Origin: an uncultured Gammaproteobacteria bacterium
GTDB lineage: Bacteria; Patescibacteriota; Patescibacteriia; UBA1558; UBA10009
Assembly (NCBI GenBank): GCA_964588165.1
Contig: CAZPMS010000001.1
Location: forward strand, 27,303 to 91,302
Direction: 5' to 3'
DNA length: 64,000 nucleotides
Of the stretch, positions 7,956 through 52,735 are shown piece after piece; within the stretch, counting starts at the first letter, position 1, and every line of letters starts with the position of its first letter. The notes below the pieces were generated by a model that worked only from the letters and a program-made list of their open reading frames with translations, made no database searches and had not been told where the DNA came from. A program made the translations under genes and the position numbers.

Positions 7956-7962
7956 AAAATGG

Positions 7963-8655
7963 CTAATTTATTAAATTTTCCAATTCCTCTATTTTCTTTT
8001 GTGCATTTTTTCTACTGGCAGGCTCAACATGGGGATGCTCAACATAATTATTTAAATAAAGTATGGCTTCTGAATAATTTTTAATATCTTCTAAATAAAC
8101 TGTAAAATGATAAAGTAGCTGAAAATCATTACCAGTTTTATCTAAACCCTCCAGATAAACTGATCTTACCTGGTCTTGTTTTTCCTTTAAATAATTTTTA
8201 TACAATTTTGCCAAATTATAATATGAGAGATAATAATTATCCCGTATATCCATAGCCTTTAAAAAAGCTTCTTCAGCTTCATAATACATACCTAATTGAA
8301 TGTATAAGTTGCCCATATTCAACCATGGTGTAGAGTTGGTTGGTATGAGCTCCCAGGCATGAGTGTAATATTCAATTGCCTGTGAAGCATTGCCTAAAGA
8401 TCTTTCTATATTTCCAAGGTCTAAATAGATTGAATAGTCGTTTGGGAATAATTCTAAGTACTCAAAATTATTTTTTATCCTTTCATTGTATTTACTAATT
8501 TGCTCATCTGATAAATTTACTTCTAAAAATAATTTATCTTCTTTAAACAAATTAAACTGAGTTATAATTAAATAGATGGCAATAATTAAAACTATTAAGG
8601 CTATAAATACAAAATATAATTTCTTATTCATTGCTAGTTTCATTTTCTTGTTCAA
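7963..8655 (-). CDS. TPR-repeat protein with N-terminal membrane anchor
   Basis: N-terminal TM (LYFVFIALIVLIIAIYLII) followed by Y/L/A-rich 34-aa-type repeats (AIEYYTHAWEL..., GMYYEAEEAFLKA...). Confidence 0.7.
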   Translation of the reverse strand: MNKKMKLAMNKKLYFVFIALIVLIIAIYLIITQFNLFKEDKLFLEVNLSDEQISKYNERIKNNFEYLELFPNDYSIYLDLGNIERSLGNASQAIEYYTHAWELIPTNSTPWLNMGNLYIQLGMYYEAEEAFLKAMDIRDNYYLSYYNLAKLYKNYLKEKQDQVRSVYLEGLDKTGNDFQLLYHFTVYLEDIKNYSEAILYLNNYVEHPHVEPASRKNAQKKIEELENLIN

Positions 8656-16764: not shown

Positions 16765-17570
16765 TACTTTTTGCCTACCAAAAAATGGCACTGTGACATT
16801 AAATAATTAGTTTTGTAAGGCTGTTTTAAAAAGACTCTTCTTAAACCAACCCAAGCCTTCCAAACCTTTGTAACTTTTTTATCCCATTTTATGCTCATAG
16901 GGGCAAATAAAGGAACGGGATTGGCATTTACCGTGTAACAATCTTTAAAGCCAGCTTCCTCAGCTTTCTTTCTATAAACTGACGGTTGGTCATTATTCCT
17001 GTAATAATCACTCTGCAATTTGGCTACCGGCTGGAAGATTTTTTTGAATAATTTGTAAACTTTATTTATTTCTTGAATAGAAAATTTGCCCGGCACGTTC
17101 ATGGATATCATAAGCCCGCCCGGTTTTAAAACCCGGTATTGCTCTTTAATTATCTGCTGATAATTCTCCAGGTGTTCAAGCAGACCCATGGAAATGGTTA
17201 AATCAAAGCTATTGTCTTCAAATGGCAATTTTGCTGAATCACCCACCATAAAAGTTCCATCTTGATTATATTTTTTAAAATTATTTTTAGCCAGCTCAAT
17301 GGCTTCATCTGATAAATCCAATAAAGTCATTTTTACGCCATCATAATCAGATAAATAAAGTGAAATGGTTCCCCTGCCACAACCCAGTTCTAAACCTGAT
17401 TCAATTTTTTTATCGCCAATAAATGACCTTATTAATTTGTGGTAGTTAACAAAAGTCAGTTGACGCTGGGTTATTGGCTTAAAACCTTTGGGCACAAATA
17501 AATCAGTTTCTTCAAACTTATCTTTATCCAAGGTTTTTTGCCATTTATCTGAAAATTGCTTATTATCCAT
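16764..17570 (-). CDS. Class I SAM-dependent methyltransferase (second, distinct paralog)
   Basis: LELGCGRGTISLYL motif I. Start placed at the internal Met (M21) just after the stop of the dehydrogenase gene. Confidence 0.75.
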   Translation of the reverse strand: MDNKQFSDKWQKTLDKDKFEETDLFVPKGFKPITQRQLTFVNYHKLIRSFIGDKKIESGLELGCGRGTISLYLSDYDGVKMTLLDLSDEAIELAKNNFKKYNQDGTFMVGDSAKLPFEDNSFDLTISMGLLEHLENYQQIIKEQYRVLKPGGLMISMNVPGKFSIQEINKVYKLFKKIFQPVAKLQSDYYRNNDQPSVYRKKAEEAGFKDCYTVNANPVPLFAPMSIKWDKKVTKVWKAWVGLRRVFLKQPYKTNYLMSQCHFLVGKK

Positions 17571-18519
17571 TCTTGAAATGTTTCTTAATCTTATTAGCAA
17601 TAAACACCTCTGTTTTAGCCCATGACTCATAGGTAGCTCCGCCTAGATGATGAACCAATAATAAATTACGATTGGCTTTGGCGAATTTAACCATATGATT
17701 GCTAAGTAAATTCTTTTTAATTTTATGTTCGTTCCTAATTACATCTGTAGCAGCACCAGCCAGCCAGCCGTTTTTTAGGCCTTTTAATAATGCCTTTTCG
17801 TCAATCAACTCACCTCGGGCTGTATTAATAAACAAAGCATTGCTTTTCATCATTTTAAAATGGCGTTCCTTAACCATATCTTCAGTTTTATCTGTCAGCA
17901 AGACATGGCAGGAAAGAACATCTGACTTCTTAAATAAATCATTCATGAAAACTTGCTTAACTTTGGCCTTGGTAAATTCTGACTTTTTAAGGTGAGGATC
18001 ATAGGCTATTACTTCCATGCCAAAAGCTTTTCCGTACGTGGCAACTTTTTTACCCAATCTGCCCAGTCCTAAAATACCTAAAACCCGGCCGTTTAATTCA
18101 TAACCGGCATTAGTATCTCTTTCCCACTTACCCTTTTTAAGTGTTTCAAAACTCCAAGGGATATTTCTGATTAAAGCCAGAAGTAATCCCCAAGTAAGTT
18201 CGGCCGTAGCATGAACACCAGATAGAAATTTTGTATCACCCCTTAAGCTGGCCACAGTAACATTCTTTTTCTCAGCAGCTTTTAGATCAATATGATTCAA
18301 GCCAGTGGTATTAGTGCCTATAACTTTAAGATTAGGAAACTGATCCATAAATTTCTTATTTATCATATTTTCCAGTTTAATAACCAAAATTGTAATTTTT
18401 TTGCCAATAGCTTTATTTTTTTTATACTGGTCCCAAGTATAAACGCGGCCGATTTTTTTATAAATATCGGTGGCGGCTTTGGAATAATACTCTGGTTCGG
18501 CAATTAATGTATGTTCCAT
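17563..18519 (-). CDS. D-isomer-specific 2-hydroxyacid dehydrogenase (NAD-binding)
   Basis: GILGLGRLGKKVA Rossmann, catalytic R/E/H region (NTARGELIDEKAL...HHLGGAT). Confidence 0.8.
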   Translation of the reverse strand: MEHTLIAEPEYYSKAATDIYKKIGRVYTWDQYKKNKAIGKKITILVIKLENMINKKFMDQFPNLKVIGTNTTGLNHIDLKAAEKKNVTVASLRGDTKFLSGVHATAELTWGLLLALIRNIPWSFETLKKGKWERDTNAGYELNGRVLGILGLGRLGKKVATYGKAFGMEVIAYDPHLKKSEFTKAKVKQVFMNDLFKKSDVLSCHVLLTDKTEDMVKERHFKMMKSNALFINTARGELIDEKALLKGLKNGWLAGAATDVIRNEHKIKKNLLSNHMVKFAKANRNLLLVHHLGGATYESWAKTEVFIANKIKKHFKNG

Positions 18520-18543
18520 AAAATTATAATTATTTTATCTTAA

Positions 18544-19920
18544 TTATGATATTTTTTCTACCTCTTTGTTCACAAATTTAGCCATTCTCTCACCGGCCCG
18601 GCCGTCAAACTGGCCATATTGCTGCTTAATCATGGCCTGTCTGCCTGCTTTATCAGTTTCTGGATTTTGAATATAAAGATTGATGGTTTTTATAAGCTCA
18701 TCAAAATTGTAAGATAACTTAGTTCCTCCAGTTGAAAATAATTTAGCGTTATGAGTTTTTATATAAATCCATTCCACAAATTTACGTCCTTTAGCTGGCC
18801 TGTCATCAAAAACAATATTTATAAGCGGTAGATCAAATGCAGCTCCATCTATATTTAAAGTTGAACCGTAATTCATCATTACTTCTGCATAATAAAGTGA
18901 GTTGGCAAAATGGCGCATATCATCTTTAGTAAATTCCCAATCTTTCCTGCCCACACCCCAGTCATTTGCAGCACCCGGATTAAAATAGTTGCCGGGCTTA
19001 TCATATTTAACAACCGGATCATTTAGATTATATTGAGTCATATCTTCATCATCTGTTGGCGCGAACCTGACTAAAATCTGCATATCTTTAGGAAGCTGCC
19101 CATTAATTATCTCATTTTTTAGATCTTTAATGAGATTTTGCCAAGACCATTTTAAGGAATTAACCGGCGGACAAAACAATAAAAACTTTTTACTGGGATC
19201 AAGCCCGACTTTTTTACAAAAATCTTCCTTGCTGTCTGGCTGGTAGTTCACATAATAATCAAAGTGCGGCATACCAACCACTTCTATATCTTTATTTTTC
19301 ATGTTTGACCATTTTAAAGCTTCAGACTTTACATAATTGTTATGGACAACCAATTTATCAGGCAAAATTCTCATAATTCCACGGGTAGATAGATTATCCC
19401 AGGAATTTACCACAGCTACAGACTTTACTTGGCGTTTTTTAGCTTCCCTTAACATGGCCATATTTTCTTTGCCATAAATATGCGGGCAAAAAACTAAATC
19501 TGGTTTATATTTTTCAAAATATGGGCCAAAAAAATTATCAGACATTACTTGCAAATATTTTTTGTAATATTTTTTCCTGGCGCACGGGATAATGCTGAGA
19601 ATTCTGATGGCAATTGACTTTAATAAATATTTGAACGGATTTTTGGCGGACATCTTCTGTTTTATAAAATTGGTTTTGGAATCCAAAAATAAATAGCTTT
19701 TATTGTTAATTTTTAGAGCATCTTTATTATCGGTATGGAAATCTACCGGTTCTAAAATTAAATTTTCTTGTTTGAATTCTTCAGCATAAAACTTAGCCTT
19801 TATTTTAGGATAAAATACCACCACCCTGTGACCGGCAGCTAAAATATTTCCTAAAACTGAAGTTCTTAGAATGTTTCTGGCCACATGGCCGAAGAATATG
19901 GGAATAAAAATGGTTTTCAT
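18544..19920 (-). CDS. Uncharacterised GT-B-like (MurG/PseG-like GH-x-x-RN N-terminus) protein, paralog 1 of 3; candidate glycosyl- or nonulosonate transferase
   Basis: 458 aa. Shares conserved blocks with ORFs 19997-21394 and 32293-33669: MKT(I/L)FIP(I/V)F.G...RN, KPDLVF, (S/G)WDNL, DIEVVG.P.FDYY. Confidence 0.5.
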   Translation of the reverse strand: MKTIFIPIFFGHVARNILRTSVLGNILAAGHRVVVFYPKIKAKFYAEEFKQENLILEPVDFHTDNKDALKINNKSYLFLDSKTNFIKQKMSAKNPFKYLLKSIAIRILSIIPCARKKYYKKYLQVMSDNFFGPYFEKYKPDLVFCPHIYGKENMAMLREAKKRQVKSVAVVNSWDNLSTRGIMRILPDKLVVHNNYVKSEALKWSNMKNKDIEVVGMPHFDYYVNYQPDSKEDFCKKVGLDPSKKFLLFCPPVNSLKWSWQNLIKDLKNEIINGQLPKDMQILVRFAPTDDEDMTQYNLNDPVVKYDKPGNYFNPGAANDWGVGRKDWEFTKDDMRHFANSLYYAEVMMNYGSTLNIDGAAFDLPLINIVFDDRPAKGRKFVEWIYIKTHNAKLFSTGGTKLSYNFDELIKTINLYIQNPETDKAGRQAMIKQQYGQFDGRAGERMAKFVNKEVEKIS

Positions 19921-19923
19921 AAA

Positions 19924-20017
19924 TTCTAATAGCTACGCTGACGTCGCTGACAGACGCGAACCGCGAACTAATTTAGTCTGCGGTCAGCGGTTTGCGCTAG
20001 TTCGCGCTGTCTGCGTT
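19924..20017. repeat. GC-rich imperfect palindromic intergenic element (family C, AGCTACGCTGAC head); encodes the last ~7 codons of the downstream paralog
   Basis: agctacgctgacgtcgctgacagacgcgaaccgcgaacta...tagttcgcgctgtctgcg inverted repeat; ~60% GC within a 30% GC genome. Confidence 0.6.
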
Positions 20018-21394
20018 ATTACTTATTTTATTTAAATAATCTAAAACATAATTGCCAACTCGCTGGCTACACTGCCCGTCAAACTTCCAGGTTAGTTCTT
20101 TAAGGATCCTGCTCCTACCCTCCTTTTCCTGCCTTGGATTTTTTAAGTATGAATTAATTTGTTTGACCAACTCCTGGTTGCTTCTGGCCATCTTCATGCA
20201 ATTTGCCTTAAGTACCGGCTGGTAATGGTCATTTTTATAAATATACCTGATGCTGATTTTAGTTGAATCAGGTTTAACAACATCATAGTCAATATTTATA
20301 ACCGGCTTATCTAAAGCAGCCGCATCAACTGTCATAGTGGAAGCAAAGTTGATGGTAACTGATGAATAGTAAATTGAATCAGCCAAGTGCTGCATGTCGG
20401 CTGTTAAAAACTCCCAGTCGTTACGGTAATTGTCTAAAGGAAACTGTTTGCCCGGCACATCATAAATAATATTTTGGTTTGATTTGAATTCACCCAGCTC
20501 TTTATTATAACTTGGCGCCAGCCTAACCAGCAGTTTTATTTTTTCATCAATCTCACCATTACTAATAGCTTGATCTAAATATTTAATAATTTCTTTAACA
20601 CTATCGCGGTAATGTCCAAAAAAAGGCGCAAATAAAATTAATTTATATTCTGGGCTAACGCCGATTTTTTTATAAAAATCTTCTTTGGCAGAAGGCTTAT
20701 AGCCAACATAATAATCAAAAATAGGCACGCCCGATGTGTAAATATCTTTTTCTTTCATATCAGCATACTTTATAGCTTCCTCCTTCATTAAATCAGTATG
20801 AACAATAATTTTATCTGGCCTAACCCTTACTACGCCTTTAGAGGTTAAATTATCCCAGCCTCTAACCATGGCAATTTTAGGCACCTTTTTCTTTTTAGCT
20901 TGTTTTAAAAACAAAGCGTCGGCCGGCGCTAAAACATCTGTTACAAAAACTAGGTCCGGCTTATACTTATCAAAATAGTTGCCAAATATTTTTTCCGGTA
21001 CTACCACAAAATCCAGCCAACGTACGAAATTTCTAAGCATCCGACTGCCCGAAAAAACTTTAGACAAAATTCTGCCCAGAGCATATCTTAATTTATTTTT
21101 ATCGGATGAATATTCAATTAACTGCAAACTTTTTTTAGACTGGGTATTTAAAAAACTTTTAGCCAAAAAATCAAAAAAGAATTCTACTTTACCTTTTTTA
21201 TGTTTCCATTCTACAGGCTCAAAAATGACATTCTTAAAGTGTCCATATTTTTCTTTAAAGAATTTTTCCTTGAGCGGTGGAACAAAACAAATAATCTTGA
21301 TATTTGGATTATCAAGAATTGGTTTAAGCATGTCTGTTATAAAAAGATTTCTGGTGCACATGCCATGGAACACGGGAATGAATAATGTTTTCAT
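19997..21394 (-). CDS. Uncharacterised GT-B-like protein, paralog 2 of 3
   Basis: 465 aa; same conserved blocks as paralog 1. Confidence 0.5.
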   Translation of the reverse strand: MKTLFIPVFHGMCTRNLFITDMLKPILDNPNIKIICFVPPLKEKFFKEKYGHFKNVIFEPVEWKHKKGKVEFFFDFLAKSFLNTQSKKSLQLIEYSSDKNKLRYALGRILSKVFSGSRMLRNFVRWLDFVVVPEKIFGNYFDKYKPDLVFVTDVLAPADALFLKQAKKKKVPKIAMVRGWDNLTSKGVVRVRPDKIIVHTDLMKEEAIKYADMKEKDIYTSGVPIFDYYVGYKPSAKEDFYKKIGVSPEYKLILFAPFFGHYRDSVKEIIKYLDQAISNGEIDEKIKLLVRLAPSYNKELGEFKSNQNIIYDVPGKQFPLDNYRNDWEFLTADMQHLADSIYYSSVTINFASTMTVDAAALDKPVINIDYDVVKPDSTKISIRYIYKNDHYQPVLKANCMKMARSNQELVKQINSYLKNPRQEKEGRSRILKELTWKFDGQCSQRVGNYVLDYLNKISNNADSAN

Positions 21395-21409
21395 TTACTA
21401 TTTTCATTA

Positions 21410-21466
21410 AACGCGCCACAACTTCGCTGTACGAACGCGCCACGGCGCGTTCCTACGTGGCGCGTT
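21410..21466. repeat. REP-like palindromic element, family A (GTACGAACGCGCC / GGCGCGTTCCTAC)
   Basis: aacgcgccac..tgtacgaacgcgccacggcgcgttcctacgtggcgcgtt, nested inverted repeats. The same core flanks and interrupts the RAYT gene at 47.9-48.4 kb. Confidence 0.65.
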
Positions 21467-21468
21467 AA

Positions 21469-23361
21469 TTATATTTTAATTTTCTCAGCAATAGATCCTC
21501 CGTCAAGTTTAAAATGTTTTAATACCTCAATATGCCCGCCACTTTCCGGGAATCTATCCAAACCAAACCTGATCAATTTTTTATTCAAACCTGATTGATT
21601 AATAATATTTAAAATCTCATCACCTTGTCCGCCTGCCAACATATGGTCATCAATATGAACTAACTGTTTTACATCCTTGATTTCATTAATCAGCCACTCA
21701 CTATCTATATTATTTAACCACGGGATATTGATAACTTTAACTTGCTTACCATCTTTTTCAAGTATGTCGGCTGCTTCCATTGCCATAGAGAGCATAATTG
21801 GTCCATAGGCCATAATGGCTATATCTTTACCATCTTTTAATGCAAAACCTTTGCCTGGCTCAATTTTATAACCTTCAGGCAGTTTTATTTCCCTAAAGCC
21901 TGGACAAATTGCCAGCCGTAAATAACTTGGAGTTTTAACCTCATTAGCCAGATATTTAATGGCCAGTTTTGACTCTTCATAATTACAGGGTTCAAAAATT
22001 TTCATTTCATGAATAGTCCTCATTAAACCAATATCCCTAACTGCCTGATGTGATTTACCAGGAATGGCTGGAATTAAACCGGCTAAATGCCCAACATAAA
22101 TAACCTGGCTATATTCTGTTGAGTTATTAAAAATTTGTTCATTGGCTCTGGCTGCCAAAAAGGCAGCAAAGGTATTTACTACCGGCAAATATCCTTGACG
22201 AGCAAGGCCACCGGCAATACCCACCATATCTTGTTCAGCAATGCCAACTTCCAAAAAATTATCAGGATAGTTCTCTTCAATTACTTTTATGCCGCAATCA
22301 ACGGCTAAATCACCATCTATAGCAATTATTTTTTTATTTTCTTTAACCAATTCAACCAAACCTTCGGAGTAGCCGCTTTTAACATCTGTATCGCACATTT
22401 TAATTTGAGCTCGCTCAAACTCCTTAGGAATTTCCGGAAACTCAATTTGATTATTACCTAAAAGATCTTTAATTCTATCATCAACTTCGCAAATTGCAGC
22501 TTCGTATTCTTCTTGGTTAGGGACTTTATTGTGCCATAAATACAAGCCGTCCTTTTTTAAAGCCTCTGGATGTTCCATAAAGGAAATTCCTTTGCCTTTT
22601 ATGGTATCTAAAATCACGGCCTTAGGCTTGCCATTAGAATAATCAATTTTCTCAAATATCTTAATTAAATCACCCATGTCATTGCCTTTTACCTCAATTA
22701 CTTCCCAGCCAAAAGCTTTTATTTTTTCTTCCAGCGGCGGCATATCTAAAATATCAGTTGTCAGCAAATCGGACTGGACTTTATTTTTATCCACCAAAAC
22801 TACTAAATTATCTAATTTCCAAGCAGGTGCTGATTGGAAACCTTCCCAGTTTTGCCCTTCTTCCAGTTCCCCATCCCCTACCATGACAAAAACTTTATTG
22901 GGTTTGTTTTCTTTTTTAAAAGCCAAGGCATGTCCTTTACCTTTGGAAATGCCCATTGCCAAAGCACCGGTATTGGCCTCAACTCCCGGAGTGGCTATAT
23001 CTACATGACCGGCCGGCCCGCCAAGTTGTCTGAATTTAAATAAATCATCATATGGCACTAAACCAACTGAGGCTAAGATTGAGTTCATCATTGGCCCGGC
23101 ATGCCCTTTGGATAGAATGAAGATATCACGTTCAGGATCATCTTTATCATTTGGATTAATCTTCATTTCCTTGTGATAAAGTAAAGTCATCACATCCGCA
23201 GCAGAAAGTGATGTACCCAGATGCCCTGTTCCTGGAACCATGACCACGCCTAAAATATTATGGCGTACCATTTCAGCCATAATTTGTAGTTTTTGTTCTT
23301 CTGACAAGTCAAAACTTTTAACTTTGTCAAAATCTTGTTTGGTGAAGAATATATTGTTCAT
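21469..23361 (-). CDS. Transketolase, N-terminal (TPP) and C-terminal (Pyr) halves fused in one 630-aa protein
   Basis: GHLGTSLSAADVMT, GDGELEEGQNWEG (TPP-binding), then EVGIAEQDMVGIAGGLA pyrimidine domain. Confidence 0.85.
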   Translation of the reverse strand: MNNIFFTKQDFDKVKSFDLSEEQKLQIMAEMVRHNILGVVMVPGTGHLGTSLSAADVMTLLYHKEMKINPNDKDDPERDIFILSKGHAGPMMNSILASVGLVPYDDLFKFRQLGGPAGHVDIATPGVEANTGALAMGISKGKGHALAFKKENKPNKVFVMVGDGELEEGQNWEGFQSAPAWKLDNLVVLVDKNKVQSDLLTTDILDMPPLEEKIKAFGWEVIEVKGNDMGDLIKIFEKIDYSNGKPKAVILDTIKGKGISFMEHPEALKKDGLYLWHNKVPNQEEYEAAICEVDDRIKDLLGNNQIEFPEIPKEFERAQIKMCDTDVKSGYSEGLVELVKENKKIIAIDGDLAVDCGIKVIEENYPDNFLEVGIAEQDMVGIAGGLARQGYLPVVNTFAAFLAARANEQIFNNSTEYSQVIYVGHLAGLIPAIPGKSHQAVRDIGLMRTIHEMKIFEPCNYEESKLAIKYLANEVKTPSYLRLAICPGFREIKLPEGYKIEPGKGFALKDGKDIAIMAYGPIMLSMAMEAADILEKDGKQVKVINIPWLNNIDSEWLINEIKDVKQLVHIDDHMLAGGQGDEILNIINQSGLNKKLIRFGLDRFPESGGHIEVLKHFKLDGGSIAEKIKI

Positions 23362-23380
23362 ATTATTTTATTAATTAAAG

Positions 23381-24490
23381 CTAAAAAAATTCACATTCAG
23401 ATTGTTCAACTGAATAAGGCTGAATAAAACTTGTTTTTAAGGTTTCAACGAAACTATTCTCTCTAAATGGCTTAATGATTGATGGAAATTCACCACCAAT
23501 TAAAATTGTATCCTTATTTATATCAGTATCGACAAGATACTCTTCTTCTACATCTTTATCGCCTCCCGATACTATTTTGTAATTTACTATTTTATAAATT
23601 TTGGATATTGAAAATGGCTTGCCATCTATTTCTTTTTTATAGTTTATATCAACTTTAATAAAAAAATCTGTATTACTTGTATTTTCCCTTATATTACTCA
23701 TTATTGAATTTAAATCATTAAAATCAATTGAAAAAGGAATTTCTTCAAGTGATTTAAGGTTATATAGTTTATTATCTAAAATACTAGTAGTTAATCGATT
23801 CTCTTCAAATTTAAAATCTGGATTATTTTCATAACTCACATAAGCAAAAGGGCAAATCGAAAGTAGTTGTGATTCTTCATCTATATCTATGCGCTTTTCA
23901 AGCATAATCATGTTAATATCAATGTCTTTAAGTCCACCTAAAAAATTATTTTTTAGTACAAAATTTGCTGTTGAGCTTGATATCTGACTGTGTCCTAAAA
24001 ATGGTAATTTATTTTTATTTAAACCACTATATTCTTTTATAGATATTGAAACTTCAGGTATAGCGCTTAGTTCTAACGATTGTTGAGTTTGTTTTAAGGA
24101 AGATTCACTTAGTTCTAACGATTGTTGAGTTTGTTTTAAGGAAAAAAAATTAATAGATAACCCTACAATTGCAACAACTAATAAATATATTGCAATTTTT
24201 ATTGCTCTGCTACTTGATTTATTAGCATTATCTAGTTGCTCAAATTCAAGGAGTTTAAACCTACCTTCAGTTGAAATTGTATAAAGATTTTCTTCGCCAT
24301 TGTCCGTTTTTTGAGTTCTTCCTAAATTTTGAAGTAAACTTTTTTCATTTATTAGCTTTCCAAAAAATAACCCTTTTTCATTTTGATTAAAATTTAAATC
24401 ATCTAATAAATTATTACAAAGAAACTCATTGTGCTTATGAGCATATTTTAGTATTTCAATATGAATATTTTTTCTTATTTTGCTATTCAT
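23381..24490 (-). CDS. Hypothetical membrane protein: cytoplasmic N-domain, one TM, extracytoplasmic C-domain; contains a 39-bp perfect tandem duplication
   Basis: Very AT-rich (~25% GC). TM IKIAIYLLVVAIVGLSINFF. Tandem repeat SLKQTQQSLELSE x2 = DNA 24085-24165. Confidence 0.6.
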   Translation of the reverse strand: MNSKIRKNIHIEILKYAHKHNEFLCNNLLDDLNFNQNEKGLFFGKLINEKSLLQNLGRTQKTDNGEENLYTISTEGRFKLLEFEQLDNANKSSSRAIKIAIYLLVVAIVGLSINFFSLKQTQQSLELSESSLKQTQQSLELSAIPEVSISIKEYSGLNKNKLPFLGHSQISSSTANFVLKNNFLGGLKDIDINMIMLEKRIDIDEESQLLSICPFAYVSYENNPDFKFEENRLTTSILDNKLYNLKSLEEIPFSIDFNDLNSIMSNIRENTSNTDFFIKVDINYKKEIDGKPFSISKIYKIVNYKIVSGGDKDVEEEYLVDTDINKDTILIGGEFPSIIKPFRENSFVETLKTSFIQPYSVEQSECEFF

Positions 24491-24574
24491 TAAACTTAAA
24501 TTTAATAATCATGCTGTAGAATAATAATAAAAAATTTTAAAATTTTATTCCACATTTTTTTCTACAAATTAATA

Positions 24575-24603
24575 TTGACAATATCTTTGAAATAGTTTAT
24601 AAT
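24575..24603 (+). promoter_or_regulatory. Consensus sigma70 promoter TTGACA-17-TATAAT
   Basis: TTGACA at 24575-24580, 17-nt spacer, TATAAT at 24598-24603; a GGGAGG RBS lies at 24634-24639 downstream. Confidence 0.6.
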
Positions 24604-24644
24604 CTGAAATTATTGTTCTTTCATTCTTTTTTAGGGAGGTTTTT

Positions 24645-24809
24645 TTGAAGAAGCCAGAAGGTGCTACAAGGTGCAAGAGATGCGGGTTGATACATTATGA
24701 TGGATCTAATTTGATCCAAGATTCAGAAACCAAGCATTGGCTTTGTAACACGCCTTTTTGTTTCGGAATTGTTCACCCGATCAGAATCGCTTTCAAGCAC
24801 CAAAACTAA
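24645..24809 (+). CDS. Candidate small (54 aa) zinc-ribbon protein gene with TTG start; alternatively a structured small RNA
   Basis: Perfect promoter, then GGGAGG, 5 nt, TTG. ORF (L/M)KKPEGATRCKRCGLIHYDGSNLIQDSETKHWLCNTPFCFGIVHPIRIAFKHQN with CxxC...CxxxxC. ~44% GC versus ~27% surroundings. Below the length cut-off of the supplied ORF track. Confidence 0.35.
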   Translation: MKKPEGATRCKRCGLIHYDGSNLIQDSETKHWLCNTPFCFGIVHPIRIAFKHQN

Positions 24810-24917
24810 CCTTTATACACAACATTACGACCTGTGGTGACGCTATGTGCGCAGCTAATGTTATCAAGATCAGCGATGATCCAAAACCCAAAAGCTAGCT
24901 TTCCCTATTCATTCAAG

Positions 24918-24949
24918 AGCCGTATGAGATATTCTCTGCGGCTTTTTTC
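24918..24949 (+). terminator. Rho-independent terminator (copy 1 of a 44-bp direct repeat)
   Basis: agccgtatgagatattctctgcggct followed by TTTTTT. Confidence 0.6.
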
Positions 24950-24962
24950 TTTATTAAATAAC

Positions 24963-25454
24963 TTATTCTAAATCAAATGGTCCGTAAAATCCACCTCCAG
25001 CAGATGCCCATTCTTGAATATAAAAAACCTTACCACAAATAATAGCCAATCGTGATACACCCACCCCAATCATCATTTTATCTTTATCTCTTTTATAATC
25101 TTCAGGATTTAAATCTGAACAACTTAATATTTTTATTTCATGATTATTTATACATTTATAGCCACCCCACCTATCTAATGATGTAGGTAAAATATTTCTA
25201 TCACTACCATAAAAACCTTCATCCATATTAATATGCTTTTTATAATCTACAGGATCAATTTGTGTTTTATAAGAAAAATTAATATCAAGGGAGCAATAAG
25301 TTTTTATTTTGGCCGATAAATTTTCATTATCTATAATCTGAAGTGTTGAGTTTTTTGGCACATAAAACATTTTTTTTATGGTTGGATAAAAGTAGATGAC
25401 TAAACCTGCAATAATAACTAGAATTATTAGTAATATAAAATTTTGTTTTTTCAT
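24963..25454 (-). CDS. Hypothetical secreted/membrane-anchored protein (163 aa, N-terminal TM, 6 Cys)
   Basis: MKKQNFILLIILVIIAGLVIYFY signal-anchor; no recognisable domain. Bracketed by near-identical 44-bp direct repeats. Confidence 0.6.
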   Translation of the reverse strand: MKKQNFILLIILVIIAGLVIYFYPTIKKMFYVPKNSTLQIIDNENLSAKIKTYCSLDINFSYKTQIDPVDYKKHINMDEGFYGSDRNILPTSLDRWGGYKCINNHEIKILSCSDLNPEDYKRDKDKMMIGVGVSRLAIICGKVFYIQEWASAGGGFYGPFDLE

Positions 25455-25499
25455 AATTTTTAGAAATTAATTATTCTTTATATATAAATTATTTTTTTA

Positions 25500-25545
25500 G
25501 GCCGTATGAGATATTCTCTGCGGCTTTTTTTCTTTTAAATAACAA
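25500..25545 (+). repeat. Copy 2 of the 44-bp terminator-containing direct repeat (ggccgtatgagatattctctgcggcTTTTTTTcttttaaataac)
   Basis: ~90% identical to 24919-24962; lies immediately upstream of the start of the 163-aa gene. Confidence 0.55.
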
Positions 25546-25552
25546 TTTTTTA

Positions 25553-25600
25553 GTAGCTACGCTGACTGACGCTGACTTGCCTGCCTACCGGCAGGCACGG
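25553..25600. repeat. GC-rich palindromic element (family C head AGCTACGCTGAC plus CCTGCC..GGCAGG hairpin, family D core)
   Basis: agctacgctgactgacgctgacttgcctgcctaccggcaggcacggac, immediately 3' of the ALDH stop. Confidence 0.5.
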
Positions 25601-25602
25601 AC

Positions 25603-27090
25603 TTAACTCTTTTTAGTTTGTGAATTTTGGATGCCGCCAGAATAATCTAAATAAACTGTCTGCCATTCACTAAAAATATCAATTCCGCCTGGGCCGGCCT
25701 CACGATGGCCGTTGCCTGATAGTCCGAATCCTCCGAATGGTAAGTGGACTTCTGAACCAAAAGTAGGGGCGTTTAAATAAACCACGCCGGTTTTTATTTT
25801 ATCCAACATCTGTAAACCTTTAGCAGAACTGTTACTGAAAACTGAAGCGGATAAACCATATTTAGTACCGTTCATAATTTCTATCCCCTCTTCTGGAGTT
25901 TCAAATTTAATTACTGATACAACCGGACCAAAAACTTCTTCCTGGCAAATTTTATCGTTTGGTTTGGCACCTGCAATTACAGTTGGCGCATAATAAAAAC
26001 CTTTAGCATGTTCACCATCTGTGAGGATTTGGCCGCCAACTAAAATTTCTGCGCCACCTTGTTTAGCTTCATCCACATATTTAGCTACATTATCCAATTG
26101 TTTTTGATTGATAACCGGCGTTACATAACTATCATCATTGGCAGCTGGGCCAACTTTAAGTTGTTTAGTTTTACTGACCAACTTGGCTACAAATTCATCA
26201 TAAATTGAGGCATGGACAACTGCCCGGCTGGTAGCCACACATCTTTGGCCGGCAATAGTAAATGAACCGGACATTACGCCATCTACTGCTAAATCTACGT
26301 CTGCATCATCCATAACCAGTACTCCATTCTTACCACCCATTTCCAAACTTACTTTAATAAGCCTGTCTGCTCCGATTTGGTTTAAATGGCTGCCAACTTC
26401 TGTTGAACCGGTAAAAGATATTAGATTGATGTCTGGATGGTTGGCTAAAAATTCACCTGCTTCCTGGCCATAACCCTGGACTAAATTAGCCACGCCTTTT
26501 GGCAAATCTGCTTTTTCTAAAATTTCAAATAGTAATTGAGCGGTTTGCGGAGTATCAGTAGATGGTTTTAAAACAGCTGTGTTGCCGCAAGTTAAAGCTG
26601 GGAACAATTTCCAGGCAATGGCCGCAATTGGAGCGTTCCAGGGAGTAATTAAAGCGCAAACACCAACAGGTACTCTTCTGGTTAAAGCCATTCTATTATC
26701 TAAAGCGGACTGGGTGGTTTGGCCATATAAACGCCTGCCCTCACCAGCAGCATAATAAGCCATATCTGCAGCTGCTTTTACTTCACCCATAGCTGCAGCC
26801 TTAACCTTGCCCATTTCTTTTACTATTACATCTGCGATTTCTTCCTGCCTTTCCATAATTATTTGGCCAACTTTAAAAAGAATATCAGCCCGCTGGGGTG
26901 ATTTTGTTTGTTCCCAGCTTAATAAAGCCTTCTTGGCTGATAAAACTGCTTCATTAACATCATCCTGATTAGATCTGGGAAATTCACCAAGAACTTCTTC
27001 TTTATTAGAAGGATTTATATTTTTAAAAGTTTGATTTGATTTGGACGGCACAAATTTGCCGTTCATGTAATTTAGGCTTTCTTTTGACAT
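25603..27090 (-). CDS. NAD(P)+-dependent aldehyde dehydrogenase
   Basis: 495 aa; ALDH glutamate and cysteine active-site regions (LEMGGKNG..., FTIAGQRCVATSR). Confidence 0.9.
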   Translation of the reverse strand: MSKESLNYMNGKFVPSKSNQTFKNINPSNKEEVLGEFPRSNQDDVNEAVLSAKKALLSWEQTKSPQRADILFKVGQIIMERQEEIADVIVKEMGKVKAAAMGEVKAAADMAYYAAGEGRRLYGQTTQSALDNRMALTRRVPVGVCALITPWNAPIAAIAWKLFPALTCGNTAVLKPSTDTPQTAQLLFEILEKADLPKGVANLVQGYGQEAGEFLANHPDINLISFTGSTEVGSHLNQIGADRLIKVSLEMGGKNGVLVMDDADVDLAVDGVMSGSFTIAGQRCVATSRAVVHASIYDEFVAKLVSKTKQLKVGPAANDDSYVTPVINQKQLDNVAKYVDEAKQGGAEILVGGQILTDGEHAKGFYYAPTVIAGAKPNDKICQEEVFGPVVSVIKFETPEEGIEIMNGTKYGLSASVFSNSSAKGLQMLDKIKTGVVYLNAPTFGSEVHLPFGGFGLSGNGHREAGPGGIDIFSEWQTVYLDYSGGIQNSQTKKS

Positions 27091-27217
27091 ATATTTATTA
27101 TTACTACTAATTACTAATCTGTACTAATATACGAATTCATTATTATTTTAGCTAAAAGAATGATTTTTAATGATGGTATTATTCGTATATTTGTATTGAT
27201 TTGTAATTCATAATCAA

Positions 27218-28774
27218 TTACTTTCGTTTAAATATAAGATTCTGTGTTATCCGGCCTGACTCTTGAAAGTCGGAAAGTTCTAAACCACGTTGTTTGAAAA
27301 AATCTACAAACCATTTTTCCCGTTCTTGCCAACCCTCATACCTAGTGGTTTCCACTAAAACTGATTTTAACTGCTCAGAAGCAAAAATTTTGTCGCCGCC
27401 TGCAACCACTTGCTGTTCAATGCCGTCCACATCGATCTTTATATGGTTAGGCTGTTCTAAACCATAATCATTAACCAGTGAATCGAGAGTTAACCCGATT
27501 GAACCTTGAATATGGACAGGTGTAAAATCTTTATCCAAATTATCCTTGGTAATGCCAAAAGCATTTTTTGCTTCACCATAACCAAATTCTTGAATATTGA
27601 AATTATTAAGCTGGTTTTTATCAGTTAAAGCTATTGGATAAGCTATAATTACTTCAGAAAAATTATTCTCTTTTATGTTTAAATTAAGTTTGGCAAAATT
27701 TAAAGCTTCCGGCTCAAAAGCATAAATTTTACAACTGCCTTTTAACAATTTTGCCGGATATAAACTGTACTGGCCAATATTAGCTCCGATATCGTAGATA
27801 ACATCACTTGGTACAAAATTATTCTCAATCCATTTTAAGGTTCCCGGCTCTTTAGTGTTATAGCTTTTACCTCGGCTAAATTCGGCTTTGGAATCTATGA
27901 TTAAAGACATTCTCTCTTTCCCGACCTGAAACTGCTTAACTTTTTTATGAGCTGAAATGATAAAACTGGTATTTTTTTTCTCACTAGCTTTAATATCCAA
28001 ATTATCGTTAATCTGGTAAAACGAGCTTAAAAAACCATTTGACTCCAGATTGGCTAAAAACTTTGAAAATTTCCGAGGGCTGTCTTTTATATTATGATAT
28101 TCTAAAATAATTTGGTTAACTTCAATTATTTTTTCAGACCTGATTATTTCTTCTAAAACCTCATCTTCTTTGCCCTCAATATCCAGTTTCAATAAATCAA
28201 TTGGCCTGTTGATATAGTTAGAAAGTTTTTTATTCTTAACTGTAATAGTTTCTGGCCTCTTATTACTCTTAACTGTAAAAAGGTCTTTGTCTAAACTATG
28301 GCCGGTGCTGCTAATTCTACTAGCATCATAAAACAAAATTTGCTCTTTTGAATCATTTGCAGAAATAGCCGCCTGAACAAGCTGAACTGACTTTAAATTA
28401 TTGTGCTTAATATTTTCTTCTAAAACTTTAAAGGTGCTTGGAAACGGCTCAAAGCAAATTATTTCCGCTTTAGGATACAAATATTTAAAATATAAAGTGG
28501 CCATTCCAATATTAGCGCCGCAATCTATAATAAAAGGATTTTTTATCAAGGTCTCAAAGTAGTAGGTTCGCCTTATAAAGATATCAACAAACATTGCGTA
28601 AAAGCTTCGGTAGCTTAAAACTTTGACTTTGTATCCTAAAAAATTTTCATTTTTAAAATCAATCCATTTAGATAAATGATTTTTAAAATTTAGTTTTAAA
28701 TAGCAAAAAAGAAGCCGAATTTTTTTCTTTTTACCAGTTTTGCCCTTAAAAATATATTGGATATCTCTAACCAC
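27218..28774 (-). CDS. Tandem-domain FkbM-family methyltransferase
   Basis: Two FkbM-type cores in one 518-aa protein: IDCGANIGMATLYF...FEP and YDIGANIGQYSLY...FEPE. Confidence 0.75.
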   Translation of the reverse strand: MVRDIQYIFKGKTGKKKKIRLLFCYLKLNFKNHLSKWIDFKNENFLGYKVKVLSYRSFYAMFVDIFIRRTYYFETLIKNPFIIDCGANIGMATLYFKYLYPKAEIICFEPFPSTFKVLEENIKHNNLKSVQLVQAAISANDSKEQILFYDASRISSTGHSLDKDLFTVKSNKRPETITVKNKKLSNYINRPIDLLKLDIEGKEDEVLEEIIRSEKIIEVNQIILEYHNIKDSPRKFSKFLANLESNGFLSSFYQINDNLDIKASEKKNTSFIISAHKKVKQFQVGKERMSLIIDSKAEFSRGKSYNTKEPGTLKWIENNFVPSDVIYDIGANIGQYSLYPAKLLKGSCKIYAFEPEALNFAKLNLNIKENNFSEVIIAYPIALTDKNQLNNFNIQEFGYGEAKNAFGITKDNLDKDFTPVHIQGSIGLTLDSLVNDYGLEQPNHIKIDVDGIEQQVVAGGDKIFASEQLKSVLVETTRYEGWQEREKWFVDFFKQRGLELSDFQESGRITQNLIFKRK

Positions 28775-28789
28775 TGTTTTATCTGTTAA

Positions 28790-29611
28790 TTACCAAGCAG
28801 TCCAACCGCCGTCTATTACTAAATTAGCACCTGTCATATAACTGGAAGCATCACTGGCCAAAAAGATTACTCCACCATTTAATTCATCTTTTTTTGCCAT
28901 TCTGCCCAAAGGAGTTCTTTTGTTATATTCTTCCAAAAATGATTCGTCTTGATTATTAAAAACTCCTCCTGGAGTTAAAGTGTTAACCCTAACGCCATCT
29001 TTTGCCCAGTAAGTTGCCAAATATCTGGTTAAGTTAACTAAAGCTGATTTTGTGGCGCTGTAAGATGCAGGTTTAGTAAATTTTTCCGGCATGCTTTCAT
29101 AAATCCTTTGATCAGGAGAAACTAACCCATAGGTTGAACAAATATTTATAATGCTGCCTTTTTTATTGGCTGCCATCCTGGCACCTATAACCTGGCAGGG
29201 TAAAAAAACGCCAGTTAAATTGACTTCCAAAACTTTATTCCAAATTTCTAAAGGATAACCCTCAAAAGTTGCTGTAGCTTCACTGCCAGAACCTGGTGGG
29301 TTATCCAGTGCCGCACAGTTAATTAAAACTTCCGGAATGCCTAAGTCTGCTTCCACCTTCTTTAAGGTTTCTGAAAGTTGATCTTTATTAGTAACACTGA
29401 CTTTATAATATTTAACATTATTAACTTCTTTAAGGTCACCAGTTAACTCATCACTAATATCAAAAACAGCCACTTTGGCGCCTGCATCAGCTAAGGCTTT
29501 GGAAAAATTTGAACCCAGTTGCCCATTACCGCCAGTTATAATTGCTACTTTATTTATTAGACTGAAGATGTTTTCGATATAATTCATATTATTTAAATTA
29601 CCAATTAACAA
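28790..29611 (-). CDS. SDR-family oxidoreductase
   Basis: AIITGGNGQLGS Rossmann, YSATK catalytic YxxxK. The start could alternatively be M9 (29587). Confidence 0.85.
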   Translation of the reverse strand: MLIGNLNNMNYIENIFSLINKVAIITGGNGQLGSNFSKALADAGAKVAVFDISDELTGDLKEVNNVKYYKVSVTNKDQLSETLKKVEADLGIPEVLINCAALDNPPGSGSEATATFEGYPLEIWNKVLEVNLTGVFLPCQVIGARMAANKKGSIINICSTYGLVSPDQRIYESMPEKFTKPASYSATKSALVNLTRYLATYWAKDGVRVNTLTPGGVFNNQDESFLEEYNKRTPLGRMAKKDELNGGVIFLASDASSYMTGANLVIDGGWTAW

Positions 29612-29699
29612 TTTCCAATTGCCAATAAATTTTTAATTTGAAATTAATTAATTTATTAATTGATTGGATATTAGTAATTGGAAATTGGATATTTAATTC

Positions 29700-30800
29700 T
29701 TACCAATATAGTGCTTCTTTAGGGATTACCGTATCTTCCTCAATATCTATTTTGGCTACCTTGCCTAAAAGTTCGTTTATTTTATAAGGCTTAAGGCCGC
29801 TGCCTGGGCTTTTAACCGTCAGCATCTCTACAGATATAGGCGTACCGGTAGAAATCCTGGTTTTGGCCACAATACTTTTTGAATGTTTTTCTCTGGCCCT
29901 TACTTCTGATTGCCTGATTTTTTTATGGGGATCACCCAAAGCTTTTTCCAACTTCCTAATGTGGTAAACCAAATCTTTAAGTTCATTCATATCCAAGCTG
30001 ACTGTGGTGTGGTCTGGGCCTGGCAGATTTTTATCAACTGTTATATGTCTTTCCACTGTACAGGCTCCCATGGCAGCCGACATAATGGTTGGCATTATGC
30101 CCTTTTCATGTCCGGAGTAACCGATTGGCAATGGCCCGTATCTTTCTATTAAGGTTTTTAGATTATTTAAATGGACATCTCCAAGCGGTGTTGGATAAGT
30201 AGAAACGCAGTGGTTAATTATCAGTTGATTATTATGCTTTAAAATTAAATCAATTGCCCTATCCATTTCTTCTATGGTAGACATACCTACAGAAAGAAAG
30301 ATTGGTTTTTTTAGCTTAGCAATCTTTTCCAAAAGATCATGGTAAGTTACATCAAAAGAAGAAATTTTATAACCATCCACTCCAAGTTCTTCTAAAAAAT
30401 CCACGCTTTTTAAATCAAATGGTGTTACAAAAAAGAAAGCTCCCAGTTTTTCTGTATGTTTTTTAAGTTCCCTAAATTCATCCATGGTAAGTTCTTGGAA
30501 CTCACGGTATTCACCATATGTTTTGCCAAATTCTAAAGTTTTGGTCTGTTTTTTATCCCGCATTTCCTTTATAAAAACATCGTCTACAGACCTTTTTTGG
30601 AATTTAACTGCATCAGCACCTGCAGCCACAGCCTCTGTAATATGCCTTTTGGCCAGTTCCACATCGCCATTATGGTTGCAGCCAACTTCGGCCACCACAA
30701 AAACCGGTTTATTTTTGCCCACCAATCGGTTGCCCACTGCTACTTGCTCGGGTATATCCAAGTGCTCAAATGGCCTCTTGGAAGCTGAATCAATTGTCAT
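29700..30800 (-). CDS. NeuB-family nonulosonic acid synthase, full length with C-terminal SAF domain
   Basis: VFVVAEVGCNHNGDVELAKR...GADAVKFQKRS; C-terminal antifreeze-like SAF fold (VAKIDIEEDTVIPKEAL). Confidence 0.85.
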   Translation of the reverse strand: MTIDSASKRPFEHLDIPEQVAVGNRLVGKNKPVFVVAEVGCNHNGDVELAKRHITEAVAAGADAVKFQKRSVDDVFIKEMRDKKQTKTLEFGKTYGEYREFQELTMDEFRELKKHTEKLGAFFFVTPFDLKSVDFLEELGVDGYKISSFDVTYHDLLEKIAKLKKPIFLSVGMSTIEEMDRAIDLILKHNNQLIINHCVSTYPTPLGDVHLNNLKTLIERYGPLPIGYSGHEKGIMPTIMSAAMGACTVERHITVDKNLPGPDHTTVSLDMNELKDLVYHIRKLEKALGDPHKKIRQSEVRAREKHSKSIVAKTRISTGTPISVEMLTVKSPGSGLKPYKINELLGKVAKIDIEEDTVIPKEALYW

Positions 30801-30906
30801 ATTTCTTTAATAATTACTACTTAAAAAGCATGGGTAGCAATGCCCTGCGCTTTCCATTTTTTATAATAGAAATGGTGCAGGGTAAATATTACTATAACAA
30901 AAAACC

Positions 30907-31569
30907 TCAAATTTCGTCAAGTTTAAACTCATTTATGGAATTTAACCTTAAATTTGCCAGTTTTTCCATAATTTCTACATTTTTTTTAGGATATGGAATA
31001 GCTACTGTAAACATACCTGCTGCTTTAGCTGCCTTTACTCCTTTTAGGTCATTTTCAAAAACCAAGCAATCTTTAGGATTAACTTCCAATCTTTTGGCCG
31101 CTAATAAAAAAACTTCAGGATCTGGTTTATTATTTTTTCCCTCATGAGTTGAAGTCAAGACTGAAAAATATTCACTCCAGCCAAAATAGTTAACCACAAA
31201 CTCAATTATTTTTAAATTCATTCCTGAAGCAATGGCCATAGGCAATTCATTTTTTTTGAAAATCTTAAGTATTTCATTTACTCCAGGTAAAACTTCTAAT
31301 TCATTTTTATATATCTCAAACATCTTTTGCATCCTTAAATCCATAATCTGTTCAGGTGATTCCTCTTTATTAAAAATCTCCTTGAGTTTAGACATAATCT
31401 CTTTTAGTTGAATTATTTCCGATTTCATCTTCAACCAGATTGGCTGCCACTCTTGCCAGGCAGCCTCACCTAAATATTCAGTAAAAAATACCTGGTCAAT
31501 TTCTGGCCAAAGTTTTTCTGAATCCACTAAAAGATTGTCCATGTCAAAAATTACTGCTTGATATTTCAT
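30907..31569 (-). CDS. HAD-IA family phosphatase (candidate NulO-9-phosphate/sugar phosphatase)
   Basis: VIFDMDNLLVDSE (DxD motif I), 220 aa. Confidence 0.8.
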   Translation of the reverse strand: MKYQAVIFDMDNLLVDSEKLWPEIDQVFFTEYLGEAAWQEWQPIWLKMKSEIIQLKEIMSKLKEIFNKEESPEQIMDLRMQKMFEIYKNELEVLPGVNEILKIFKKNELPMAIASGMNLKIIEFVVNYFGWSEYFSVLTSTHEGKNNKPDPEVFLLAAKRLEVNPKDCLVFENDLKGVKAAKAAGMFTVAIPYPKKNVEIMEKLANLRLNSINEFKLDEI

Positions 31570-31572
31570 ATA

Positions 31573-32289
31573 TTATTTTTCTAATCTTTTTTTAAGAAGT
31601 TGCTCTGCTATTAAAAAATCTTTTTCATCATCAATATCAACCGCATCTAGCTTATCAATCTTATGAAATAGAATCTTGTTACCTGATAATGATTTATCTT
31701 TCATCAATGTATCATACTTTACGGCAATTACATCTGTATGTGAAAGAGCCTCGGGAAACGATTGCCTTGGTTGATTTGCAATATCAGGTCCGGTAATTTC
31801 TTCCGGCATAAATGGCTTTAATTGTTTGCCCTCAACTCTCCATAATTTATATGGATGCTTAGATGCTTCAATTACAGTTCTGCATGAAGTGGCTTCTTTA
31901 TCTCCAGCTAATAGCTCTATGCACTTATCAATGGATTCTGTTTTACATAATGCAGAAGTAGCTGGTAAACGCAATATAATATCCGGCTTCCAATTTTCAT
32001 TCTCCTCAAACCATTTAACTGCATGGGTTAAGTATTTAATATCCAGTGCTTTATCATCAGATATTTCTTTAGGCCTTAAAAAGGGCGCTTCAGCTCCGTA
32101 CTTTTTGGCAATATCAGCATATTCTTGTGAATCAGTAGAAATAATTAGCTTATCAATTAACTTGGAAGCTTTAGCTGCCTCGGTTATCCAAGCTAAAAGA
32201 GGTTTACCGAGCAGCAGTTTAATATTTTTATGAGGCAGCGCTTTAGAACCTGACCTGGCTCCAATAACTGCTAAAACATTTAAATTCAT
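31573..32289 (-). CDS. Second nonulosonate/acylneuraminate cytidylyltransferase (CTP_transf_3)
   Basis: LAVIGARSGSKALPHKNIKLLLGKPLLAW. Confidence 0.85.
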   Translation of the reverse strand: MNLNVLAVIGARSGSKALPHKNIKLLLGKPLLAWITEAAKASKLIDKLIISTDSQEYADIAKKYGAEAPFLRPKEISDDKALDIKYLTHAVKWFEENENWKPDIILRLPATSALCKTESIDKCIELLAGDKEATSCRTVIEASKHPYKLWRVEGKQLKPFMPEEITGPDIANQPRQSFPEALSHTDVIAVKYDTLMKDKSLSGNKILFHKIDKLDAVDIDDEKDFLIAEQLLKKRLEK

Positions 32290-32292
32290 AAT

Positions 32293-44582: not shown

Positions 44583-44646
44583 CACCCCACGACCCGCTCC
44601 CTACGGTCGCCTGCTCGCGGGGACCCCGCCTTTTTTGGAAAATTTT

Positions 44647-52584: not shown

Positions 52585-52595
52585 ATTATTTTTGT

Positions 52596-52735
52596 CAGTA
52601 CATGTCAGTAAAGGTCGGTGTCGTCTGTACTTGTCTGTGCCTGCCTGCCGGCAGGCAGATAAGTCCGTGTAAAATACAGACTTCTACCGACCAACGCGGA
52701 CGACACGGACAGGCACAGACTTTCACAGACTTTTC
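52596..52735. repeat. GC-rich palindromic element, family B, with embedded CCTGCC-TGCCGGCAGGCAG palindrome (family D core)
   Basis: aggtcggtgtcgtctgtacttgtctgtgcctgcctgccggcaggcag...acgcggacgacacggacaggcacagac; overlaps the AsnB stop codon. Confidence 0.6.

Follow-up and report, generated by a model that had tools for sequence, protein, structure and literature searches.

We analysed a 64-kb stretch of a Patescibacteria-type genome (contig CAZPMS010000001.1; hereafter the window) and find that positions 23381-25602, between the genes for transketolase and aldehyde dehydrogenase (ALDH), form a 2.2-kb islet that very likely represents an insertion. The islet, or the part of it up to about 25553, would be horizontally acquired DNA set into a tight ALDH-transketolase junction, and the target would be the very large surface-glycan biosynthesis region of a member of the Patescibacteria, or Candidate Phyla Radiation (CPR). 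It comprises a gene for a 369-aa membrane protein, a central unit with a consensus promoter, a 54-codon small open reading frame (sORF) and a terminator, and a gene for a 163-aa protein bracketed by a 44-nt direct repeat. A sequence-only reading of this DNA had taken the layout for the footprint of an inserted cassette and a candidate accessory module, and every feature that it listed (genes, promoter, ribosome-binding site and repeats) was recovered at the same position. The insertion holds relative to the one syntenic relative; the single module is not supported, because the three parts have three compositions and because homologues of the 369-aa protein, at the loci we examined, are never found with the other two parts. 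The lack of any recombinase near the islet also counts against a single cassette. Overall, we consider it probable that the islet is a horizontally acquired mosaic of three independent transcription units and not one conserved module.

The only usable syntenic relative is a Patescibacteria metagenome-assembled genome (MAG), here called L012; other loci are given similar handles where they need to be told apart. The genes for NeuB, an SDR protein, ALDH and transketolase are collinear in L012 and in the window, with ~66-82% amino-acid identity over translated matches. The L012 transketolase (7519-9411) is 72% identical to that of the window and its ALDH gene (6030-7508) is syntenic with the window copy. 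In L012 only 10 nt separate the ALDH stop (7508) from the transketolase start (7519) and the 2.2-kb segment is absent, which answers the comparison with related genomes that the sequence-only reading had proposed. The segment also differs from its surroundings in composition. Among the 50 long ORFs of the window (150 aa or more), the 369-aa and 163-aa genes have the lowest GC content at third codon positions (GC3; 0.141 and 0.160, respectively), ~2.6-3 standard deviations (sd) below the mean of 0.292 (sd 0.051), and the central unit lies above the host mean (GC3 0.46). The sharp change in composition described earlier is upheld as a foreign signature, with the GC content of the central stretch (24645-24918) corrected from ~44% to 41.6%. 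Because of this anomaly, together with the orphan status of two of the parts and the different genomic places in which 369-aa homologues reside, we regard insertion here, rather than deletion in L012, as very likely.

The 369-aa protein has 7 homologues at 35-57% identity, and no model in Pfam, NCBIfam, PADLOC or PHROGs matched it. The homologous genes are more AT-rich than their hosts elsewhere too, the DNA flanking them is not conserved between loci, and their gene contexts vary (Table 1). Compared with its relatives, the copy in the window is missing ~12 internal residues and 10 more at the C-terminal end. We conclude that the family is small and uncharacterised, and that the 369-aa gene is solitary, mobile and associated with defence islands. 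Weighing against a defence function, PADLOC matched none of the three islet proteins and neither of two homologues, and the link to defence is by neighbourhood only.

Table 1. Features of the islet and its flanks (window coordinates), and gene contexts of homologues of the 369-aa protein
Feature	Position	Strand	Basis or details
Transketolase gene, 630 aa, left flank	21469-23361	-	Pfam Transketolase_N, Transket_pyr, Transketolase_C
369-aa gene	23381-24490	-	ORF; stop 19 nt before transketolase start
Juxtamembrane motif SLKQTQQSLELS, duplicated in frame	24066-24101 and 24108-24143	-	Repeat finder
Divergent intergenic region, 154 nt	Between 369-aa gene and 54-codon ORF		
Putative promoter-like site for 369-aa gene, TTGTCA-16-AAAAAT	24554-24581	-	Weak consensus match, 9/12
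Perfect sigma-70 consensus promoter, TTGACA-17-TATAAT	24575-24603	+	12/12 match
GGGAGG and sORF	24634-24809	+	5-nt spacer (7 nt from GGAGG core), TTG start, CKRCG...CNTPFC
54-codon TTG-start ORF (sORF)	24645-24809	+	ORF
Untranslated stretch, ~105 nt, sORF stop to terminator	24810-24914	+	Roughly host-like GC; fold z-score -0.5
Terminator hairpin and U run, holding repeat copy 1	24915-24962	+	-16.9 kcal/mol, z=-4.35
Direct-repeat copy 1	24919-24962	+	Between convergent sORF and 163-aa genes; ends exactly at 163-aa stop codon
163-aa ORF	24963-25454	-	ORF
Direct-repeat copy 2	25501-25544	+	Hairpin and U run; 46 nt upstream of 163-aa start
GC-rich spacer next to ALDH stop	25554-25602	-	Hairpin GCCTGCCTACCGGCAGGC at 25579-25596
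ALDH gene, 495 aa, right flank	25603-27090	-	Pfam Aldedh, E=8e-166
Full-length homologues, L008-L010			Directly after type I restriction-modification operon containing DUF3800
Full-length homologue, L011			Before DpnI
Full-length homologue, L006			Island with serine recombinase, Phage_rep_O, DndB, GIY-YIG
Full-length homologue, L036			Before N6 DNA methyltransferase
Full-length homologue, P0006 contig			After DUF3800
Shorter protein (winged helix and membrane helix only), L039			Between HsdS and TIR_2/DUF4238
Shorter protein (winged helix and membrane helix only), L042			Near HEPN_AbiV and integrase

The central unit would be a self-contained cassette firing against the operon, with its own promoter, Shine-Dalgarno site, 54-codon zinc-ribbon ORF and intrinsic terminator. 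Both the consensus promoter and the strong terminator of the sequence-only reading are borne out. The promoter is the sole 12/12 match in 64 kb, where 0.2 would be expected by chance, and the GGGAGG at 24634 is the only + strand copy of that motif in the window. In 20000 dinucleotide shuffles an ORF of at least 54 codons arose in 19%, such an ORF with a Shine-Dalgarno-like site in 0.43% and one with two Cx2-4C pairs in 0.16%. The joint chance of an ORF, a Shine-Dalgarno site and two cysteine pairs is ~3e-5 if these are independent, which is still strong for a test devised post hoc. An AlphaFold2 (AF2) single-sequence model of the sORF product reached a predicted local distance difference test (pLDDT) score of 75-84 over residues 1-40, with a zinc-knuckle-like fold for which Foldseek returned only non-significant zinc-finger matches. 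We lean, by a little, towards the sORF being a foreign, moron-like gene for a predicted small zinc-ribbon protein, from a donor that uses Shine-Dalgarno sites; its product would most likely bind zinc.

Several results weigh against translation of the sORF. At -0.17 per codon, its codon score is lower than that of every one of 3000 in-frame windows taken from host genes, and its GC content at codon positions 1/2/3 (.39/.41/.46) shows no three-base periodicity. A Shine-Dalgarno-like 4-mer stands upstream of at most 4 of the 50 long ORFs of the window; the host seems to initiate translation largely without such sites, its genes being preceded by AT-rich sequence. Since host genes are essentially devoid of Shine-Dalgarno sites, GGGAGG is not informative as a native translation signal. 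Moreover, gene callers left the sORF uncalled on every contig, it is not in the protein collection, and no homologue was found in genome, viral or metagenome contigs, nor among 5.8 billion protein clusters. At the nucleotide level the central unit had no match in the loci with 369-aa homologues or the rest of the window (nhmmer, blastn), nor in phages and plasmids (blastn in 'distant' mode). We also considered a decayed gene in the other ORFs of the unit (46 aa and 45 aa), and these had no Pfam or NCBIfam hits.

Much of this can be turned towards a different product, and it is possible, if unlikely, that the unit (about 24610-24950) specifies a non-coding or dual-function RNA of ~340 nt in which the ORF and GGGAGG are incidental. 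The perfect promoter and terminator would suit an RNA gene as well, as would a GC content higher than that of the surroundings, codon usage unlike any host gene, the scarcity of Shine-Dalgarno sites in the host and an ORF that no gene caller reports. In the lowest-energy fold of the whole transcript (z=-2.98) the GGGAGG region pairs with the 3′ end; it may, for example, close the fold by pairing with CUUUCCCU. Islands with 369-aa homologues, moreover, contain the structured RNAs LOOT and DUF3800-V. A clearly structured RNA was nevertheless rejected, as the whole-transcript z-score came mostly from the terminator and the body was unexceptional: without the terminator the z-score is -1.7 to -2.0, which falls inside the range of the genomic background (mean -0.5, sd 1.4), and folding of the reverse complement is no weaker. 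Rfam 15 gave no match at gathering thresholds in the window and, with E relaxed to 10, nothing above chance level in 24400-25650, and ARAGORN detected no tRNA or tmRNA in the 64 kb. The conjunction of ORF, Shine-Dalgarno site and two cysteine pairs is also very unlikely by chance under the RNA reading, for which there is no homolog to test covariation. What is left of our expectation, after the protein gene and the RNA, falls to the unit being a decaying remnant.

As a small zinc-ribbon gene with its own signals, the central unit recalls phage morons, which are reportedly autonomous promoter-gene-terminator units lodged between two genes of an operon. Sequence evidence gives it one small ORF with a strong sigma-70 promoter, ribosome-binding site and intrinsic terminator of its own; it stands between genes that are adjacent in the relative (L012 spacer 10 nt) and its composition is unlike its surroundings. 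It differs from morons in lying in a bacterial glycan operon and not in a prophage, in being oriented against that operon, in having two further foreign genes beside it, and in that its sORF is only a candidate gene, with translation predicted. We found no phage genes among the window genes that were read and no match in phage collections. The sORF product also resembles ribosomal protein L33 in length (54 aa), in its CxxCG knuckle and in a second cysteine pair with PFC, and its CKRCGLIHY is similar to the CKKCGQINY of L33 in L038; in contrast to L33 its second pair is Cx4C and its linker is acidic or neutral rather than basic. An origin from L33, considered after rpmG was seen in L038, was rejected, there being no Pfam (PF00471) or NCBIfam hit and only a 12-aa local match.

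If the islet were instead ancestral, the L012 lineage must have deleted it cleanly, which we judge improbable. In favour of such a deletion are the single outgroup and the state of the sampled population, where the islet is fixed and does not vary: all population contigs read, which come from at least seven metagenome samples, agree exactly over its length, and a 20-nt difference that L003 and L004 seem to show is due to a scaffold N-gap. Opposed to it are the outlying composition of the two large genes, the unrelated contexts of 369-aa homologues in other genomes, the fact that two of the three parts are orphans, and the tight 10-nt operon spacer at the L012 junction. The segment is also not the only difference at this locus. 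A gene for an FkbM-type double methyltransferase (window 27218-28774) adjoins ALDH and is missing at the syntenic L012 spot, where the SDR gene (ending at 5998) is directly followed by ALDH (starting at 6030); a related methyltransferase gene lies elsewhere in L012 (about 1860-2609). This neighbourhood gains or loses genes, and the extra methyltransferase gene in the window speaks for a gene-gaining region.

The same analysis produced points that weigh against an insertion. The direction of the event rests on a single outgroup. No target-site duplication or outer boundary repeat was found at the islet. The genes called from window position 17488 to 34490, a span that reaches 5.9 kb beyond the islet towards transketolase and 8.9 kb beyond it on the ALDH side, include no recombinase, and spot checks elsewhere in the window found none either. 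Lastly, exact look-ups of the ALDH and 369-aa genes found no strain without the islet, or without the 163-aa gene, among contigs with an identical ALDH gene.

Turning to the 369-aa protein, an AF2 model from an 8-sequence alignment has an N-terminal helix-helix-helix-strand-strand arrangement, a winged helix, over residues 1-72, then a long helix that includes one membrane span (about 98-117), and at the C-terminal end a beta-rich domain. Confidence is high for residues 10-110 (pLDDT >80) and low for the C-terminal domain, which weighs against the architecture proposed for that end of the protein. The one transmembrane helix given in the sequence-only reading falls in this long helix. The N-terminal domain superposes on phage ArsR/PadR-type helix-turn-helix (HTH) proteins and the best whole-chain structural match is a phage 'transmembrane protein' (E=8e-4); matches in the PDB were non-significant. 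The model would make this a membrane-tethered winged-helix protein, in which one membrane helix links a DNA-binding head in the cytoplasm to a beta-rich domain outside. From this architecture and the gene neighbourhood we infer that it may act as a membrane-bound sensor or regulator, or as an exclusion-type factor.

Regulators of the ToxR/CadC type would share the predicted cytoplasmic winged-helix head, the single membrane helix and the extracytoplasmic C-terminal domain, as well as divergent transcription from a strongly promoted small gene, here predicted from sequence. Unlike them, none of the members of the 369-aa family (8/8) matches Trans_reg_C (OmpR-type) or any other Pfam HTH model, and the family sits among defence and mobile genes instead of regulons. 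The promoter-like site of the 369-aa gene and the divergent consensus promoter overlap at their -35 boxes. In the interval from the 369-aa start to the consensus promoter (window 24515-24566) there is an inverted repeat, TGTAGAATAA...TTTTTCTACA, around a AAAATTTTAAAATTTT palindrome; it could be an operator for the divergent pair, and could also have arisen by chance in DNA so AT-rich.

Other loci of the family carry features of their own. Two 369-aa homologues (L006 7940-8000 and L036 140-203) share a ~70% conserved leader just before the start, GAGG..ATGGTGYTTTCT...ACRAAAACGAT, which could represent a regulatory element or a short upstream ORF and is absent from the window copy. A LOOT RNA (RF03000, 60 bits) lies at L006 7378-7499, ~500 nt upstream of the homologue, and 1.1 kb of GC-rich DNA in the same locus (6437-7553) has several hairpins and no called gene. 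At L008 5014-5109 a DUF3800-V RNA (74.8 bits) adjoins DUF3800 in a type I restriction-modification island with another homologue. At L011 1-3510, ~4.5 kb upstream of a further homologue, there is an rRNA/tRNA cluster in which the match to the 1533-position 16S model covers 1788 nt, suggesting that this 16S gene carries an insertion; it is followed by tRNA-Ile, tRNA-Val and tRNA-Pro, with a group I intron match (3115-3337) between tRNA genes. Finally, in L040 5000-11500 (same as L037, an IMG/VR contig) the ORFs obtained with code 11 near a match to the winged-helix and membrane-helix module are all short and odd, and this viral contig may use an alternative genetic code or be poorly assembled.

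The position of the islet bears on transcription of the operon. In L012 transketolase is coupled to ALDH, and in the window it follows the 369-aa gene by 19 nt. As there is no convincing - strand terminator between ALDH and transketolase, strong antisense transcription from the central unit probably also hampers read-through. Transketolase would probably depend on the weak promoter-like site (24581-24554), or on such read-through as survives antisense transcription. A bolder proposal, which we think very unlikely, is that the 369-aa family is a new membrane-tethered DNA-binding component of Patescibacteria defence or exclusion that works here with the divergent sORF or RNA to gate the downstream half of the glycan operon. 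If true, the islet would be a switch linking phage or host sensing to the make-up of the surface glycan via an antisense transcript.

The 163-aa ORF is probably a real gene, given that its in-frame codon score of 0.23 supports coding. Its predicted product begins with a hydrophobic anchor or signal segment, contains 4 cysteines (at 54, 101, 112 and 140), and would be a membrane-anchored or secreted, cysteine-containing orphan (ORFan). Searches of 5.8 billion clusters and 1.84 billion representatives (the latter by full HMMER scan) returned only the protein itself, and it has no similarity to the 369-aa family or to a similarly built 166-aa protein of L042. The direct repeats with terminator hairpins that the sequence-only reading saw around this gene are a real duplication. 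A 24-nt core, GCCGTATGAGATATTCTCTGCGGC, occurs exactly twice in the 64 kb, at 24919 and 25501, where none is expected by chance; the search elsewhere that had been proposed found it in no viral contig and in none of the other loci. The full repeat (24919-24962 vs 25501-25544) is identical at 44/45 nt with two 1-nt indels, its copies are 582 nt apart, and it is not a product of chance. On the + strand both copies form hairpins with U runs (-16.9 and -14.6 kcal/mol; -11.9 and -8.5 on the - strand), and copy 2 is oriented to stop + strand (antisense) transcription only. A simple terminator scanner missed both hairpins because the stem has a bulge.

These repeats suggest a simplest route of acquisition, which we offer tentatively and by analogy: recombination at the 44-nt terminator module may have brought in the 163-aa gene, as an addition or a replacement, and left one copy on each side. 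Recombination between promoter/stem-loop cassettes (promoter-early stem-loop, PeSL) moves ORFans in T4-type phages (PMC2839356). As in those cassettes (PMC2839356; PMC4122927), an ORFan lies between direct repeats of a ~45-nt module with an effective-looking terminator, and recombination between modules would insert or excise the gene together with a module. The differences are that no promoter consensus lies inside the 44-nt repeat, that there are two copies in 64 kb and none in other loci, with no variant contigs or mini-circle, and that the present context is not phage. Far less plausible, in our view, is that the gene is a site-specific recombination cassette with the 44-nt repeats as its sites, of the integron attC or Xer/dif-like kind. 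A promoterless-looking ORFan exactly between direct copies of an imperfect palindrome, one of which ends at the stop codon, has that appearance. The repeat, however, lacks the RYYYAAC...GTTRRRY core of attC sites and occurs just twice in the 64 kb, neither the region nor spot checks of the window revealed a tyrosine or serine recombinase, and a hairpin with a U run and G-U pairs that work only on the + strand fits an RNA terminator better.

The 369-aa gene also contains an internal duplication, which had been described as a perfect 39-bp tandem repeat. It proves to be two exact 36-nt copies at a 42-nt period, encoding SLKQTQQSLELS twice with a 2-aa spacer, and was not reported by TRF. The motif SL(K/N)KTQQSLELS, just outside the membrane, is single in 7/7 homologues and doubled only in the window copy, so that the earlier suggestion of a recent event is right: the 14-aa duplication is lineage-specific and is a recent in-frame slippage. 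That it might be a contingency repeat, variable in phase or length, as was also suggested from its exact, tandem-like form within a surface-exposed juxtamembrane segment, is hardly credible given only two copies, a period that is a multiple of 3 and permits no frameshift switching, and a length that is constant across the contigs of at least seven samples.

In Patescibacteria both genomic islands and gene transfer are common (PMC12455944), and the islet is a known kind of event, that of small horizontally acquired islets or morons in variable glycan or defence regions. It shares with the islands described there a compositionally atypical insertion, genes of unknown function and a CPR genome, and members of the 369-aa family are found with type I restriction-modification islands that resemble one reported in that work. 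It differs in being only 2.2 kb long, without an integrase or tRNA anchor, and in lying inside a biosynthetic operon. Current understanding, in which gene gain in glycan and defence regions is expected, stands. What the islet adds is a base-resolved case of ultra-small CPR bacteria probably adding orphan surface and defence-linked genes within a conserved glycan operon. It also draws attention to an uncharacterised family with a predicted winged helix and membrane helix that accompanies restriction-modification, TIR, AbiV and DUF3800 genes, and to an orphan promoter-to-terminator unit for a putative small zinc-ribbon protein or RNA.

Both the transketolase and the 369-aa protein have their nearest relatives in Patescibacteria MAGs. 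By gene annotation the whole window is given over to surface-glycan synthesis, with genes for sugar transferases, many glycerophosphotransferase-like proteins, NeuB, a CMP-sugar transferase, epimerases, a flippase, GtrA, a deacetylase and sulfate activation. The latter are CysD-like (PAPS_reduct) and CysN-like (GTP_EFTU) genes at 43779-45867, which suggest a sulfated surface polymer. The transketolase gene is native operon DNA. On the other side, the spacer at 25554-25602 resembles other intergenic spacers of the genome and is probably native as well, because its motifs recur at 19930 and 52639. Such GC-rich spacers of simple motifs lie within long - strand operons at 19921-19996, 25554-25602 and 52585-52733, with GTCAGCGTAGCTA at 19930 and 25554 and GCCTGCC..GGCAGGC at 25579 and 52639; they may be a genome-specific family of intergenic hairpins. 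The strongest fold z-score of the window (-5.6) belongs to the 52.5-kb spacer.

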